Positions 16,318 through 51,145 of a DNA stretch of 64,000 bases are shown in pieces. Position 1 is the first letter of the stretch. Each line of letters starts with the position of its first letter. Source of the DNA: an uncultured Clostridia bacterium (GTDB taxonomy: Bacteria; Acidobacteriota; Aminicenantia; UBA2199); NCBI GenBank assembly GCA_964465065.1, contig CAYXHZ010000003.1, positions 9,975 through 73,974 of the forward strand, given 5' to 3'. Both the position numbers and the translations under genes were made by a program. The notes beneath the pieces are model-generated. The model was given only the letters and a program-made list of their open reading frames with translations, was not told the origin of the DNA and made no database searches.

Positions 16318-17619
16318 TTACGCCCTCCGGCTCCGGTGCGGAAAGGCGGCTCGCGGCGCCGGCCGGCCGCGGAACTGGGTCTGCGGTTCCTCGGCAGGGG
16401 CGGCCCGTCTGGCCGATTCGGAATGGTAGCCGTGCTGGGTATCGACCGTCACCGGGCGGCGGATGAAACGTTCGATCCGGCTCAGGTAACCCCGTTCGGC
16501 GGCCGTGCAGAAGGAAATGGCCTGTCCACCGGCTCCGGCCCGGGCGGTACGGCCGATGCGGTGCACATAGGTTTCGGCCTCGATGGGCAGATCGTAGTTG
16601 ATGACATGGGAAATTCCGTCCACATCGATGCCCCGGGCGGCGATGTCGGTGGCCACCAGCACCCGGATCCGTCCCTGCTTGAAATTGGCCAGGGCCTCGG
16701 TACGAGCGTTCTGACTCTTGTTGCCGTGAATGGCCACGGCCTGGATGCCGTGGTCGGCCAGTTTTTTCACCACCCGGTTGGCCATGTGCTTCATCTGGGT
16801 GAAGACGATGACCCGTTCGCAGTCGCGCCCGTCGAGAAGCGATGACAGCAGGGCATCCTTGTCGCTTTTTTCCACAAAGAGAACCCGCTGACCGATGCGG
16901 TCCACGGTCGGGGCTTCGGGGGTGATGCGGATGGTGACGGCATCCCGGACCAGAGTGCGGGCCAGGGCGGCCACTTCCGCCTCGATGGTCGCTGAAAAGA
17001 ACAGGGATTGACGACGCGCCGGCAATTTGGCGATCACCTTGCGCACATCGGGCAGAAAACCCATGTCCAGCATGCGGTCGGCCTCGTCGAGAACGAAGAT
17101 CTCGACGGTCCCCAGGTCGATGTAGCCCTGCTGGATCAGATCCAGCAGCCGGCCGGGTGTGGCCACCAGGATATCGACTCCGCCACGCAGGGCGCTGATC
17201 TGGGCGGCCTGACCGACGCCTCCGAAAATGACGGCATGGCTGTGCCGGAGGTACCGGCCGTAGACGCGGATGCTGTCGTCGATCTGGGCGGCCAGTTCAC
17301 GGGTCGGCGCCAGGATCAGCACCCGGGGGTGCTTGGCCAGCGCCGGTTTCCGGTTCGAGGTCAGATACTGCAGAATCGGCAGAGTGAAGGCCGCGGTTTT
17401 ACCGGTTCCGGTCTGGGCGCAGCCGATCAGGTCCCGGCCGGCCAAAAGGTGGGGAATGGCCTGTTCCTGAATTGGAGTCGGCTTCTGATAGCCCTCTTGG
17501 GTTACGGCCTGCTGCAATTGCGGCAGCAGCCGGGAAAAGGATCCGGAGAGTTGCGGAATGACGTTGCGAGAAATGGAGCCGGTTTGTCTGGTTTTTGCGG
17601 CAGATTCAGAAAAATTCAT
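16318..17619 (-). CDS. rhlE: DEAD-box RNA helicase (RhlE-like)
   Basis: Q motif PTPIQ, AQTGTGKT, PTRELA, LDEAD, FSAT, ATDIAARGID, YVHRIGRTARAG. Confidence 0.93.
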   Translation of the reverse strand: MNFSESAAKTRQTGSISRNVIPQLSGSFSRLLPQLQQAVTQEGYQKPTPIQEQAIPHLLAGRDLIGCAQTGTGKTAAFTLPILQYLTSNRKPALAKHPRVLILAPTRELAAQIDDSIRVYGRYLRHSHAVIFGGVGQAAQISALRGGVDILVATPGRLLDLIQQGYIDLGTVEIFVLDEADRMLDMGFLPDVRKVIAKLPARRQSLFFSATIEAEVAALARTLVRDAVTIRITPEAPTVDRIGQRVLFVEKSDKDALLSSLLDGRDCERVIVFTQMKHMANRVVKKLADHGIQAVAIHGNKSQNARTEALANFKQGRIRVLVATDIAARGIDVDGISHVINYDLPIEAETYVHRIGRTARAGAGGQAISFCTAAERGYLSRIERFIRRPVTVDTQHGYHSESARRAAPAEEPQTQFRGRPAPRAAFPHRSRRA

Positions 17620-17791
17620 AAAAAATCCTTATGTCGTTAAATTTGTTCCCGCCTGTTTGTGAAATGATGAAACGATGCAAAAATCCGATGTCGTATCGAA
17701 TATCGACCAGGCCAGGGGCCCGGTGTCATAGTTCATGTATTCCCTGTTGAAGCGATTGCCATACGGCAAGGCCCACGGGCTCAACGAAATC

Positions 17792-17820
17792 ACTATACGC
17801 CGGATCGGGGCGGGTGTCAA
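17792..17820 (-). promoter_or_regulatory. Sigma70 promoter for the DEAD-box helicase
   Basis: Minus strand TTGACA (17815-17820)-N17-TATAGT (17792-17797). Confidence 0.7.
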
Positions 17821-17992
17821 GGAAGAGGAGAAGTGGACAAAAAATGGACGGAAGTGGACAAAGAGAAGAAGTGGACGAGGAGTGGACGAAGAGATCGCTC
17901 AGTTTTTCTTTACGTCCACTTCTCTCTGTCCACTTCTTTTTCCAGTCCACTTCACTCCGTCCACTCCCGTCCACTTCTTCTCCTCCTAGACA
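17815..17992. repeat. Palindromic array (left element): five (G/A)TGGAC units followed by five GTCCAC units
   Basis: Purine-rich arm then pyrimidine-rich arm; termini 17815-17838 and 17969-17992 are inverted repeats matching at 21/24. Confidence 0.92.
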
Positions 17993-18015
17993 AACAATCA
18001 ATCACTCCCTATAAT
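17987..18015 (+). promoter_or_regulatory. Sigma70 promoter for the four-helix-bundle gene
   Basis: TAGACA (17987-17992)-N17-TATAAT (18010-18015), GGAGG SD before ATG 18043. Confidence 0.7.
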
Positions 18016-18042
18016 GTTACTATTGTTTTCATAGGAGGGGTC

Positions 18043-18624
18043 ATGCCGGAAAAGATCCTGGGTGCCCACGGAGGCTACCGTCAACTGAAAAGTTTTCAAC
18101 TGGCCCGGCTCGTTTACGATCTGACCGTGGACTTCTGCAACAACCATGTCAGCCGCTTCAGCCGCACCCGGGACCAGATGATCCAGGCCGCCCGGAGCGG
18201 CGTGCAGAACATTGCCGAAGGCAGTCTGGCCGCGGCCGCCTCTACCAAAACGGAAATCCGGCTCACCCAGGTGGCCCGCGCCAGCCTGGAAGAGCTCAAG
18301 CTGGATTATGAAGACTTTCTGAGACAGAACGAGCTCGAGCCATGGCCCAGAAACCATCTTTTCAGACAGACCCTCATCGATCGCCGTTACCGTCACTCCA
18401 GAGATGTCCTCGACTGGATCGCGGAGATTACAGAAAAAACAGCTCAGCATGGGCTAACTTCCCCGCCGGTTGCGCTGACTTACGCCAATGCCGTTCTGAC
18501 TTTGATCCATGTCGCCTGCTTTCTTCTCGACCGCCAGGTGGCGGCATTGGCGCGGCGCTTCGAACGGGAAGGCGGGTTCAGCGAACGGCTGTATCGGATC
18601 AGGAGGGAGAAGAGACGGGGGTGA
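18043..18624 (+). CDS. Four-helix-bundle protein with suffix domain (23S rRNA IVP / Avd-like superfamily)
   Basis: GGYRQLKSFQ, RTRDQMIQAARSGVQNIAEGS, ARASLEELKLDYEDFLRQ and C-terminal FEREGGFSERLYRIR. Confidence 0.88.
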   Translation: MPEKILGAHGGYRQLKSFQLARLVYDLTVDFCNNHVSRFSRTRDQMIQAARSGVQNIAEGSLAAAASTKTEIRLTQVARASLEELKLDYEDFLRQNELEPWPRNHLFRQTLIDRRYRHSRDVLDWIAEITEKTAQHGLTSPPVALTYANAVLTLIHVACFLLDRQVAALARRFEREGGFSERLYRIRREKRRG

Positions 18625-18736
18625 GGAGAAGAAGGGGACTAAGAATAAAGAAGTGGACAAAGAGTGGACGAAGAGATCGCTCATTTTTTTCCCGTCCACT
18701 TCTTCTCCTCCTCAACTTCTTCTCCCCCTCCTCCGC
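18623..18736. repeat. Palindromic array (right element), related to the left element
   Basis: 18623-18639 and 18694-18710 are inverted repeats (16/17); two 22-nt blocks are identical to the left element (18662-18683 = 17880-17901; 18691-18712 = 17966-17987). Confidence 0.9.
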
Positions 18737-18765
18737 TTGAAATAAGCCCCGAAAGCCCGTAAAAT
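18737..18765 (+). promoter_or_regulatory. Sigma70 promoter for trpS
   Basis: TTGAAA-N17-TAAAAT, AAGGAG SD before ATG 18795. Confidence 0.65.
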
Positions 18766-18794
18766 GACGGTTCGGGAACAAGGAGAATCCGACC

Positions 18795-19832
18795 ATGAAC
18801 CTCTACCGCGATCAAAACGGCTACCTGTGCTATAAAAACGCCGACGGCAAACAGCGTACCTTCTCGGGCATTCAGCCGACCGGTGACATCCACATCGGCA
18901 ATTACCTGGGCGCCATTTCCAACTGGTTGAAATTTCTGGACGAGTACGAGTGCGTCTTTTGCATCGTCGACCACCACGCCACCACCATCGAGTACCGGGT
19001 CGACGAAATGCCTCAGCGCATCGTCAACGCCGCCATCGCCAACATCGCCGCCGGTCTGGCCCCCGAGCGCTGCATCCTGTTCGTGCAGAGCGAAGTGCCC
19101 CAGCACACCGAACTGGCCTGGATTTTCAACACCGTCACCCCGTTCGGGGATCTCACCCGCATGACCCAGTTCAAGCAGAAAGCCAAAGAGCACGAAGAAA
19201 ACGTCAACGTCGGCCTGTTCACCTACCCGGTACTGCAGGCGGCCGATATTTTACTGTACAAGGCCAGTGCCGTACCCGTCGGCGAGGATCAGGTGCAGCA
19301 TATCGAACTGGCCCGCGAAGTGGCCCGCAAGTTCAACGCCCGCTTCGGCGAGGTTTTTCCCGAATGTCAGGCCCATGTCACCACCGCCAAACGCATCATG
19401 GGGCTGGACGGCGAGAAAAAAATGTCCAAGTCCATCGGCAACACCATCGGCCTGCTGGAAACCCCCGATCAGATCTGGCAGAAACTGGCTCCCGCCAAAA
19501 CCGACCTGCGCCGCCAGCGCAAGACCGACCCCGGCGTGCCAGCCGACTGCAACATCTTCACCAGCTACCACCAGCACTTTTCACCGGAAACGGATCTGGA
19601 CTGGATCCGGGAAGGCTGCACCCGGGCCGGAATCGGTTGTCTGCAATGCAAAAAGAAACTGCTGGAAAACATGGAAAAGACCCTGGGTCCGATCCGTGCC
19701 CGCGCCGACGAACTCCGCAAGCGCCCGGACACGGTTCACGACATCCTGGACAGCGGCGCCCGCAAAGCCCGGACCATCGCCGAACCGGTCATCGAGGAGA
19801 CGCTGCGGACCATGGGACTCAAGAGAAGCTGA
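18795..19832 (+). CDS. trpS: Tryptophan-tRNA ligase
   Basis: FSGIQPTGDIHIGNYLGA (HIGH-type), YPVLQAADIL, VPVGEDQ, KMSKS. Confidence 0.98.
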   Translation: MNLYRDQNGYLCYKNADGKQRTFSGIQPTGDIHIGNYLGAISNWLKFLDEYECVFCIVDHHATTIEYRVDEMPQRIVNAAIANIAAGLAPERCILFVQSEVPQHTELAWIFNTVTPFGDLTRMTQFKQKAKEHEENVNVGLFTYPVLQAADILLYKASAVPVGEDQVQHIELAREVARKFNARFGEVFPECQAHVTTAKRIMGLDGEKKMSKSIGNTIGLLETPDQIWQKLAPAKTDLRRQRKTDPGVPADCNIFTSYHQHFSPETDLDWIREGCTRAGIGCLQCKKKLLENMEKTLGPIRARADELRKRPDTVHDILDSGARKARTIAEPVIEETLRTMGLKRS

Positions 19833-49971: not shown

Positions 49972-50009
49972 CAAATAAACCGGCAAAGAACACAAAAAGC
50001 GCTCACCGC

Positions 50010-50169
50010 GCTCATCGGGGACGGAGCGTCACAACGTCACAGTTTATCCGCCTTTTTTTCTTGTTCGCACCCTTCGAAAAATCATCCTCAAACCACTGAG
50101 ACCAATATCCGCAAAAATATCGAAGCGCGATATATCCCGATACCTCAGCCCTGCCTTTTCTTTTAGCAA
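50010..50169 (+). repeat. 160-bp direct duplication (repeat unit plus 3' end of the transposase gene)
   Basis: 50010-50169 is identical to 50206-50365; an extra repeat unit sits between them (50170-50202). Confidence 0.92.
50017..50040 (+). repeat. RAYT-associated 24-bp repeat, copy 1 (copies 2 and 3 at 50179-50202 and 50213-50236)
   Basis: GGGGACGGAGCGTCACAACGTCAC, containing a GACG-GAG-CGTC mini-hairpin. Confidence 0.92.
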
Positions 50170-50239
50170 GCGCTCATCGGGGACGGAGCGTCACAACGTC
50201 ACGGGGCTCATCGGGGACGGAGCGTCACAACGTCACAGT

Positions 50240-51145
50240 TTATCCGCCTTTTTTTCTTGTTCGCACCCTTCGAAAAATCATCCTCAAACCACTGAGACCA
50301 ATATCCGCAAAAATATCGAAGCGCGATATATCCCGATACCTCAGCCCTGCCTTTTCTTTTAGCAAAAACAACAATTCGTTGCGCAGGCGTTTCCCCTCAG
50401 CACTACCGGGATCGAGTCCATCCAGTTTTACCTGATGGATTCCTTCAAACTCCCGGATTACCTTATCAACGGGATCATGGAACAGATCATCCACTCTACG
50501 ATGTTCCAAACTGAACCCGTCGGAACGTCTTTCCGATCTTTCCAGCGCTGCAGGCACAAACTCATCTCCACCAACAATCAGCCCCATCGGTGTCGGCACC
50601 ACCGGAAGCAAAAGCAAATCCTCGAGCCCGGTAATAAAACCAGACATTTCCTTCATACTTCCAAACAGACTCTCAACATAGGCAGAATCAAGCCATGGCA
50701 ATGGCTCGTTAATGAAGTATGTCCCTGCACTAGACCACCGATAGCTCAAATAATCATTTTGCAAACCAGCCCGGACAGGGTTATTCAGTACATACGCCAG
50801 GACGATCATTAGGTACGCATCATCCTGAACAAGCATCGACTTGTATCGGTCCTGAAACAGGTAGCCTCTTCCACCATACTGTTGCCGATAATATGTTGCA
50901 TATTGGCCATTGAGCTGTTTGAAAAAATCAGCCAAGCGATCACTTGTATCTTGCACAACGAGATGATAGTGATTTTTCATGATACAAAACGCCAATATTC
51001 TTATCTTTTCCTGAGCTTGTAAGATCGCAAGCAGATTTAAAAAAAACTGCCTGTCCTGGTCGGTGTGGAAAATTGTACGTCCCTCGTAACCCCGGTTCAT
51101 CGCATGATGAAATGCCCCTTCGTACGTGATTCTGGCCCGTCTCAT
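50240..51145 (-). CDS. REP-associated tyrosine transposase (Y1_Tnp / IS200-like) with C-terminal HTH-like extension
   Basis: MRRAR...FHHAMNRG, HUH motif MKNHYHL, LFQDRYKS, catalytic YVLNNPVRAG, YRWSS. Confidence 0.93.
   Translation of the reverse strand: MRRARITYEGAFHHAMNRGYEGRTIFHTDQDRQFFLNLLAILQAQEKIRILAFCIMKNHYHLVVQDTSDRLADFFKQLNGQYATYYRQQYGGRGYLFQDRYKSMLVQDDAYLMIVLAYVLNNPVRAGLQNDYLSYRWSSAGTYFINEPLPWLDSAYVESLFGSMKEMSGFITGLEDLLLLPVVPTPMGLIVGGDEFVPAALERSERRSDGFSLEHRRVDDLFHDPVDKVIREFEGIHQVKLDGLDPGSAEGKRLRNELLFLLKEKAGLRYRDISRFDIFADIGLSGLRMIFRRVRTRKKGG

Follow-up and report, generated by a model that had tools for sequence, protein, structure and literature searches.

Within a 64-kb stretch of contig CAYXHZ010000003.1 from an uncultured bacterium of the Aminicenantia (hereafter the window), a gene for a protein with a four-helix-bundle (4HB) suffix domain lies between two hairpin-forming elements built from repeats of the hexamer GTGGAC and its reverse complement GTCCAC, the whole being referred to below as the cassette. 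This partnership of gene and hexamer array recurs in more than 20 bacterial phyla and suggests an undescribed protein-repeat system. The family is a large one: clustering at 90% identity gives more than 8000 clusters, and clustering at 50% identity, with E <= 1e-30, gives 174. Its genes are present in more than 20 bacterial phyla at 50-65% identity, and the layout of gene and arrays was counted family-wide in 80 genome loci of relatives drawn from more than 20 phyla. A preliminary description of the window had called for the element to be searched for among relatives, allowing that it might occur only here, that it might be randomly intergenic without any cassette structure, or that relatives might carry the gene at this locus without repeats. 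Repeats were present in the relatives as well, and arrays of the same hexamer flank distant homologues located at unrelated loci. No published description of the arrays or of the gene-array association was found in the full text of open-access papers and bioRxiv.

Linkage of the hexamer arrays to the 4HB-suffix gene

Across the 80 loci, GTGGAC or GTCCAC occurs at 4.46 per kb in the gene and the 400 nt on either side of it, compared with 0.49 per kb in 555 kb of outer flanks, an approximately 9-fold difference from a flanking rate that equals the random expectation. Three or more periodic units were present at 72 of the 80 loci but in only 9 of 308 control windows. The arms of gene-linked arrays, usually of two to five units, stand in the order forward-then-reverse in 41 cases and in the opposite order in none. 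The usual layout comprises a forward arm of three to five units at -80 to -30, an in-frame forward and reverse arm at approximately +385 to +480 and, sometimes, an additional hairpin or a lone reverse arm 3' of the stop codon; repeats on both sides of the gene, as in the window, were also seen at loci L004, L012, L045, and L054. At 9 loci an upstream forward arm has its pairing partner in the internal reverse arm, and at 4 loci the internal forward arm pairs with a reverse arm downstream. Between proteins of 50-65% identity the hexamer is retained, whereas the spacers vary freely. Since the 3-nt spacers of gene-linked arrays are non-complementary (21%), the predicted stem is one of 6-bp helices with regular 3x3 internal loops. 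Folding energies of the sense and antisense strands revealed no sense bias, internal arrays being slightly more stable on the antisense strand (29 versus 12).

The window protein, claimed in the preliminary description to be a four-helix-bundle protein related to S23p and Avd, scored 69.0 bits against TIGR04258 ("four helix bundle suffix domain"; cut-off 40) and 34.0 bits against TIGR02436 (cut-off 24), with Pfam PF05635 just under its cut-off (33.2 against 33.8 bits). The AlphaFold2 monomer model, with a predicted local distance difference test score (pLDDT) of 90.7, is all-helical, and its best Foldseek matches in the PDB, 2RLD (the S23p-family protein BT_0352, probability up to 1.00) and 8UB7_B (Avd of a diversity-generating retroelement (DGR), probability 0.97, TM 0.68), bear the claim out, their E-values being weak (0.2-0.7). 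The protein is basic (pI 9.9), with a C-terminal tail, RIRREKRRG, whose arginine- and lysine-rich character is conserved in the alignment. A homopentameric toroid has been reported in the literature for the family members Xcc0516 and Avd. A profile search of PDB sequences gave no significant match, PADLOC and PHROGs returned no match to the protein, and no nuclease or recombinase fold or motif was recognisable in it by Pfam, TIGR, the PDB profile search, or Foldseek.

In most relatives, the in-frame array encodes the loop between a helix ending at about residue 135 and another starting at about residue 143 of the model; the window protein has no array at this loop (approximately residues 136-142). 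The array is read as xGT-GGA-Cxx and xxG-TCC-ACx, which yields linkers rich in glycine and in serine or threonine. Usage of the serine codon TCC is 53% in in-frame arrays versus 20% elsewhere in the gene, and that of the glycine codon GGA 69% versus 17%, a bias that places the nucleotides, rather than the amino acids, under selection. Many family representatives match the query only over residues of about 3-105/130, or match in two stretches, which is consistent with gene calls or assemblies that break or frameshift at the internal array.

The word and its period also shift together with the protein clade. Seven loci carry ACGGAC/GTCCGT at a 10-nt period instead of GTGGAC at a 9-nt period, and six of the seven proteins are each other's nearest relatives; the seventh, from L080, is, for most of its length, nearest to the main class and appears to be recombinant. 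The substitutions R108L and L111F set all seven apart from the rest of the family. Variants confined to a single locus were also encountered, namely GCGGAC (L041), GTGAAC or GTAAAC (L084), and TGGAC only (L021, L085), and in each case the same variant stands in the coding and the non-coding arrays of the locus, as it also does in L081. A divergent gene of Prevotella nigrescens FDAARGOS_1486 (L402; NZ_CP082843.1, 260483-261172), the single match on a plasmid or chromid, encodes a C-terminal coiled-coil-like extension, has no GGAC linker array and is followed by a downstream hairpin with TAGGAA/TTCCTA units.

The genomic company of the gene is diverse, with 72 Pfam families upstream and 70 downstream. 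HsdS is the upstream neighbour in 8 of 72 loci and HsdR the downstream neighbour in 8 of 77, other defence-island genes among the neighbours being AlbA_2, RhuM, AAA_23, and Eco57I-type genes; all other neighbours are unrelated housekeeping genes. Many copies of the gene belong to operons, where they are separated from the adjoining gene by 5-8 nt or share overlapping stop and start codons with it, and arrays are found in the operon junctions. No reverse transcriptase was among the families listed for the nearest called open reading frame (ORF) on each side of the 80 homologues, a template repeat/variable repeat (TR/VR) pair not having been searched for. Searches of 2.9 million viral contigs and 50,697 phages found no copy of the gene, and among 72,556 plasmids one carried it. 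Two truncated 4HB-suffix pseudogenes, with the first 46-52 residues of the protein joined to the region just before or after the array, were detected at L088:7081-7515 and L378:1-345, each still beside an array.

Arrays without the gene were also recovered. The forward-reverse pattern detected at least 120 metagenome loci, 15 of which overlap a 4HB-suffix gene or pseudogene; set against about 105 metagenome loci with such an array, this one family thus accounts for 15, the array lying in the gene or next to it. Solo arrays are intergenic and wedged tightly between genes (16 convergent, 21 tandem, and 7 divergent); their neighbours represent 124 different Pfam families, and in a count of 104 neighbours of solo arrays no other family was seen more than twice. 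Two solo arrays were present in the 555 kb of relatives' flanks. In arrays found by pattern, an arm may have as few as 2 or as many as 42 units, and the two arms of an array may differ greatly in length (19+3, 2+42); a hidden Markov model of the N-terminal domain, run against all ORFs of about 400 loci, found no additional 4HB gene near solo arrays. One array type forms the centre (GTGGAC/GTCCAC at a 9-nt period) of a 174-bp family of miniature inverted-repeat transposable elements (MITEs) that end in terminal inverted repeats (CCTGGATTCGGCAGT / ACTGCCGATTTTAGG) and are flanked by target-site duplications of 5 bp (TTCAT, ATGAA, TTGAA, ATTAT, ATCAT, and ATAAA), copies of which lie at L303:10467-10550 and in L305, L313 (two), L321, L331, L363, L365, L375, and L376.

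The forward-reverse pattern had replaced a search with GTGGACNNN x3 alone, which gave more than 120 viral matches, none beside the gene. These viral stretches (L089-L168), which include giant-virus bins, have no 4HB gene nearby; by frame logic, a 9-nt period with GGA fits collagen-like Gly-X-Y coding repeats, and such stretches can confound searches of this kind. Seventy viral contigs carry perfect palindromes of the same word without the gene. In phage contigs of the loci L209-L277 (for example, L209:4437-4742 and L213:8069-8374), the palindromes (GTGGACAWTGTGGAC, 16 nt, GTCCACAWTGTCCAC) are clustered, additional half-sites occur within about 300 bp, and no 4HB gene is nearby; these clusters look like operator or origin iterons. 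A DnaA-box identity for the hexamer (GTCCAC versus TTATCCACA or TTGTCCACA) was rejected, since positions 1, 2, and 9 of the box would coincide with spacers that vary freely.

The cassette between rhlE and trpS

In the window, the cassette occupies the interval between rhlE and trpS (Table 1). The forward arm of the left element (17833-17887) holds GTGGAC at 17833, 17854, 17871, and 17882 together with ATGGAC at 17844, and the reverse arm (17914-17974) holds GTCCAC at 17914, 17928, 17945, 17959, and 17969, the two arms enclosing a 26-nt centre (17888-17913) within which GAAGAGATCGCTCA lies. The ends of the element (17815-17838 and 17969-17992) are complementary at 21 of 24 positions (88%). The right element has a purine-rich outer arm at 18601-18639 and a pyrimidine-rich one at 18694-18732, forward GTGGAC units at 18653 and 18664, a reverse GTCCAC unit at 18694, and a centre (18670-18693) whose core is identical to that of the left element. 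The two elements have in common a 42-nt block of 93% identity (17866-17907 and 18648-18689), with an exact GAGTGGACGAAGAGATCGCTCA inside, and a 23-nt exact block (17965-17987 and 18690-18712); furthermore, the arms at 17851-17877 and 18693-18719 are 85% complementary across the gene. Against the minimum free energies in Table 1, that of the left element being computed as RNA, shuffled sequences gave -59.1 +/- 4.5 kcal/mol (left) and -48.5 +/- 4.3 kcal/mol (right), with 0 of 200 shuffles as good in each case.

Table 1. Positions of the cassette components, promoter-like sites and boundary genes in the window.
Feature	Position	Strand	Remarks
rhlE-like DEAD-box RNA helicase gene	16318-17619	-	Left boundary gene, outside the system; Pfam DEAD 5.4e-50, Helicase_C 6.1e-33
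Promoter-like site for rhlE	17792-17820	-	TTGACA, 17 nt, TATAGT; 11/12 consensus matches
Left hairpin array	17815-17992	.	24-nt outer inverted repeat; fold -106.5 kcal/mol, z = -10.5
Promoter-like site of the cassette gene	17987-18015	+	TAGACA, 17 nt, TATAAT; 11/12 consensus matches
Four-helix-bundle suffix gene	18043-18624	+	193 aa; TIGR04258 and TIGR02436 matches; AlphaFold2 model
Right hairpin array	~18601-18734	.	Shared blocks with left element; fold -65.9 kcal/mol, z = -4.0
Promoter-like site for trpS	18737-18765	+	TTGAAA, 17 nt, TAAAAT; 10/12 consensus matches; directly 3' of right element
trpS, tryptophan-tRNA ligase gene	18795-19832	+	Right boundary gene, outside the system; Pfam tRNA-synt_1b 4.9e-69

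All that the preliminary description reports of these elements in the sequence was confirmed at the coordinates it gives: the five forward and five reverse units and the terminal inverted repeat of the left element, the exact blocks common to the two elements, and the folding of both as long hairpins were all seen. One of its points needed a small correction and another a shift of emphasis. The right element, said to begin in the stop codon of the gene (18622-18624), does overlap it, but extends further, as its outer arm from about 18601 covers the last 8 codons. The GAAGAGATCGCTCA core on which stress had been laid is indeed present in both elements, but the centre is not shared outside the window's clade, and it is the periodic NGGAC array that is conserved instead.

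The two elements, about 312 nt in all, contain 12 of the 38 GTGGAC/GTCCAC sites of the window, where about 0.2 would be expected. No further long hairpin was found in the window outside them, and an exact and near-exact search for GAAGAGATCGCTCA in the window returned two copies only, both in the elements. An Rfam scan of 17000-19500 gave sub-threshold microRNA-precursor matches only, that is, generic long hairpins. An intrinsic terminator at either element was considered and set aside, the scan reporting none and the T-runs being located in loops rather than after stems. The G+C content of the cassette (0.52-0.60) is barely under that of its flanks (0.59-0.65) and so provides no clear foreign signature; a target-site duplication at the cassette was looked for and not found. 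The 4HB-suffix gene is the sole gene of the cassette, which, as the preliminary description had it, has neither transposase nor integrase.

Promoters were predicted here from consensus matches only. Both ends of the left palindrome coincide with -35 boxes of divergent promoters, that of rhlE at the outer left end and that of the cassette gene, whose ribosome-binding site (GGAGG) is at 18034-18038. With three promoter-like sites abutting the elements, the cassette is placed exactly between two host promoters. The -10 region of the cassette promoter, TA(T/A)AATGTTA, is kept in L012 and L004, and the promoter-like site of trpS is conserved in L004, L012, and L398. The rhlE promoter and its 5' leader of about 190 nt are conserved in related species (window 17620-17820; L004; L398:1363-1591), suggesting that the DEAD-box helicase gene has a regulated leader.

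Three contigs of the species itself (L001-L003), at 99% identity, were uninformative. Three other species (L004, L012, and L398) have TrpS proteins 84-86% identical to that of the window. In L012, the gene lies upstream of trpS together with two arrays and is oriented as in the window, on a contig that begins inside the left element, the far neighbour being unseen. In L004, the entire element-gene-element block is inverted between the same rhlE and trpS promoters. In L398 (TrpS 85% identical), the rhlE promoter comes immediately after trpS, and both cassette and arrays are missing. No clean example was found of the empty rhlE-trpS site that the preliminary description proposed to look for: L398 is devoid of the cassette, but its trpS is also inverted with a different partner. 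The more distant Aminicenantes (L399-L401) showed no rhlE-trpS adjacency when compared by their TrpS orthologues. The 4HB proteins of the three carriers (window, L004, and L012) are only 63-67% identical. The two flanking elements are far more alike within each genome than between genomes, the pairs being near-identical over about 110 nt in L012 and 76% identical over 136 nt in L004, where adjacent array units are also near-identical. In L085, the two flanking elements are near-identical over 41 nt.

By its TrpS, the organism is placed near Candidatus Aminicenantes. The remaining genes of the window are chromosomal housekeeping genes (glycine cleavage, GlyRS, Pol I, type II secretion, and RNase PH), and no transposase, integrase, or reverse transcriptase appears among the 25 Pfam families listed of the 54 matched there. 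Elsewhere in the window, a 196-nt tandem duplication (50003-50365; 1.9 copies at 98% identity) falls in an intergenic or promoter-like stretch, the neighbouring ORFs ending at about 49995 and starting at about 50240.

Candidate readers of the arrays

A hexamer kept across phyla, spacers that drift, codon choice in the in-frame array, a fixed arm order, and a word and period that shift with the protein clade together point to a sequence-specific reader, and the 4HB-suffix gene is the sole gene consistently linked to the arrays. The reading tentatively favoured here, held with rather less than even confidence, is that an Avd/S23p-like oligomer has the arrays as its cognate nucleic-acid ligand, used in cis and possibly also in trans. 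Among the options of the preliminary description, that of the element as a predicted RNA ligand for the encoded protein is the one that the comparative data favour.

What we infer, namely the binding of the array by the protein, its oligomeric state, its use of RNA or DNA, and the regulatory outcome, may be pictured as follows. The 4HB-suffix protein would be a basic helical bundle of the S23p/Avd kind, from a family with pentameric toroids, that reads nucleic acid bearing periodic NGGAC units in a forward arm and then a reverse arm. The arrays would fold to a stem of 6-bp GUGGAC/GUCCAC helices with unpaired spacers between them, and the regularly spaced unpaired bases may dock between protomers in a manner comparable to the Avd-RNA stem-loop complex of DGRs. 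In the DGR particle, five Avd protomers all contact one RNA stem-loop, with flipped-out bases inserted between protomers (bioRxiv 10.1101/2023.10.23.563531). Since arrays occur in the leader, the coding sequence, or the 3' end of the gene itself, the target of the protein in cis would be its own transcript or locus, the simplest outcome being feedback on protein synthesis or stability; solo arrays at the ends of other genes could serve as targets in trans. In the window, the right element would be the 3' end of the cassette mRNA, and the left element, lying between the -35 boxes of two divergent promoters, would act as DNA or only on read-through RNA. As a side effect, the cassette would readily recombine through its inverted arms, and the inversion of the block in a sister species would follow from this.

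Several observations weigh against this cognate-ligand reading. Solo arrays outnumber gene-linked ones, and a different and widely shared factor could read the motif. The left element of the window is upstream of the predicted promoter, which is at odds with a purely RNA-level role, and the folding energies are without sense-strand bias. The link between protein clade and motif could stem from shared descent rather than co-adaptation. The internal array is dispensable, since the window protein and its two closest relatives have lost it, and the structural matches to 2RLD and 8UB7_B combine their high probability with the weak E-values given above.

Four other explanations, not all mutually exclusive, were considered. 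The foremost is a mobile or recombining cassette in the manner of REPIN-RAYT systems (repetitive extragenic palindromes (REPs) in hairpin-forming pairs and their REP-associated tyrosine transposases), in which the arrays would be sites of movement, inversion, and excision, the protein a specificity or accessory factor, and the solo arrays non-autonomous or left-over copies. It would account for the very diverse gene contexts, for a presence that varies among species with 85% identical TrpS, for the flanking elements that are near-identical within a genome like long terminal repeats (L012, L085), for the truncated pseudogenes adjoining arrays, and for solo arrays packed tightly between genes as REPs are; one array type, moreover, travels in a MITE with target-site duplications. 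The inversion in L004 indicates that the array arms do recombine, whatever their primary role is. However, no fold or motif of a nuclease or recombinase is recognisable in the protein, a target-site duplication is missing from the window cassette, the only candidate empty site is itself rearranged at trpS, the gene is missing from the viral and phage collections searched and all but missing from the plasmids, many copies are well-integrated operon members, and the MITE has inverted repeats of its own and so probably its own transposase. On balance, this explanation is rather unlikely. The mobile cassette inferred in the preliminary description holds as a discrete unit, which adjoins trpS in three species, is inverted in L004, and is missing from L398, and its mobility is plausible but unproven.

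Secondly, the elements may be RNA-processing or insulating hairpins of the kind known from 23S rRNA intervening sequences, the stems being cut by RNase III or another host nuclease so as to release or insulate the 4HB mRNA, with no protein binding required. Family genes in 23S rRNA intervening sequences do sit within inverted repeats cleaved by RNase III (PMC4990558), the window hairpins are long and near-perfect stems, arrays occur in operon junctions, and in many loci (9 + 4) the sole partner of an arm lies across the coding module. Nevertheless, RNase III needs no conserved hexamer, and a cross-phylum word with free spacers favours a sequence-specific reader; most gene-linked stems, being 6-bp helices with 3x3 loops, are poor RNase III substrates, the strict arm order is left unexplained, and the left element of the window is outside the predicted transcripts. 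The proposal is considered quite improbable.

No more credit, and if anything slightly less, is given to the notion of independent selfish or structural palindromic repeats, expanded by slippage or serving as terminators, mRNA stabilisers, or sites of a general host factor, with the gene as a mere passenger. A 4HB gene is lacking in the vicinity of most arrays recovered by pattern alone, the long and unequal arms (19+3, 2+42 units) point to slippage, the near-identical adjacent units of L004 point to recent expansion, and phage contigs without the gene contain similar words in the form of perfect palindromes. Such repeats would nonetheless hardly show a 9-fold enrichment around a single gene family across more than 20 phyla, nor be held in frame in the same protein loop of most members with a nucleotide-level codon bias, nor change motif and period together with the protein clade; a canonical terminator is also lacking, the T-run being in the loop.

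Last, a type III toxin-antitoxin-like or defence module, in which repeat RNA from upstream of the gene or from within it would neutralise or be processed by the protein and frequent placement in type I restriction-modification operons would reflect a defence role, is scarcely credible, as the units of 9-10 nt are far shorter than the type III antitoxin repeats of about 36 nt, the protein has no RNase motif and no PADLOC or PHROGs match, and most loci, the window included, are in housekeeping neighbourhoods. It draws on the HsdS, HsdR, and other defence-island neighbours counted above, on a layout of repeat array then gene like that of ToxIN, and on genes of the PF05635 family reported in cas loci (PMC3936711).

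Comparison with known systems and significance

One parallel in distribution is with REP/REPIN-RAYT systems, which likewise comprise short palindromic repeats dispersed intergenically, mostly at the 3' ends of genes, and one protein gene that is itself flanked by repeats of a type that tracks the type of the linked gene. The linked gene here, however, encodes a four-helix bundle with no transposase domain, as opposed to the HUH (Y1) transposase of the IS200/IS605 type; the repeats are arrays of a 6-nt word at a 9- or 10-nt period rather than a single hairpin of 20-35 nt; the word is common across phyla rather than species-specific; and the array is also found in frame inside the gene. The REP-like suggestion of the preliminary description therefore fits the distribution only, the linked gene not being a RAYT. 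Its attC-like suggestion does not hold. Integron attC sites are recognised by their cores (RYYYAAC ... GTTRRRY), the associated ORF lacking a promoter and an integron integrase lying close by; the present cassette resembles them in pairing a small gene with an imperfect palindrome able to fold as a hairpin, but there are no R or L core sites in the elements, no cassette array, and no integrase among the 25 Pfam families listed of the 54 matched in the window, the gene has its own promoter-like site, elements are found on both sides and, in relatives, inside the gene, and it is the sequence, not structure alone, that is conserved.

Two further systems involve homologous proteins. In the 23S rRNA intervening sequence (S23p, PF05635), an ORF of the same protein family is enclosed by stem-forming inverted repeats, and since 1993 the sequence has been proposed to be a selfish or mobile element helped by its ORF (PMC4990558). 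The present locus differs in lying between rhlE and trpS rather than in an rRNA gene (helix 25 or 45), in having arms that are periodic hexamer arrays, in possessing two self-complementary elements or an internal one instead of one terminal stem, and in the extra "suffix" helices of the protein. As for Avd and the stem-loop of the DGR spacer RNA, the fold is homologous, 8UB7_B being among the best structural matches of the model, and part of the cis-acting RNA of the DGR lies within the avd coding sequence (bioRxiv 10.1101/2023.10.23.563531). The putative ligand here is a repeated array, whereas that of Avd is a single 11-bp stem, and no reverse transcriptase was found among rhlE, trpS, the other nearest neighbours, or the 25 Pfam families listed of 54. 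By analogy only, TRAP with its (G/U)AG repeat RNA and type III ToxIN may also be likened to the present case, in that a ring-shaped or oligomeric protein reads tandemly repeated RNA encoded beside the regulated or partner gene; their folds are unrelated, their unit lengths are different, and they have no matching architecture of forward and reverse arms.

S23p/Avd four-helix-bundle proteins are among the commonest bacterial proteins of unknown function, and their role outside DGRs has been open since the ORFs of rRNA intervening sequences were described in 1993. The present analysis supplies a specific and synthesisable candidate ligand (GTGGAC at a 9-nt or ACGGAC at a 10-nt period, in forward-then-reverse arms), a natural specificity swap between two sub-families, and carriers that are cultured or sequenced from isolates, namely Desulfatitalea alkaliphila M08but, Chlorobium ferrooxidans DSM 13031, Geoalkalibacter ferrihydriticus and, in divergent form, Prevotella nigrescens, which together make the function of the protein directly testable. 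A palindromic DNA array held in frame in a protein loop under nucleotide selection is rare and noteworthy in itself, and the widespread class of intergenic repeat arrays to which it belongs appears uncatalogued so far. A bolder proposal, to be entertained as a possibility more than believed, is that of a pan-bacterial two-part system made up of an Avd-like oligomer and its own class of periodic NGGAC arrays, set forward-then-reverse, selected at the nucleotide level even in a reading frame and spreading as solo copies or as MITE cargo. Such a self-recognising nucleoprotein unit would be unlike any described system, and its biology may lie in self-regulation, transcript marking, or a new mode of mobility.

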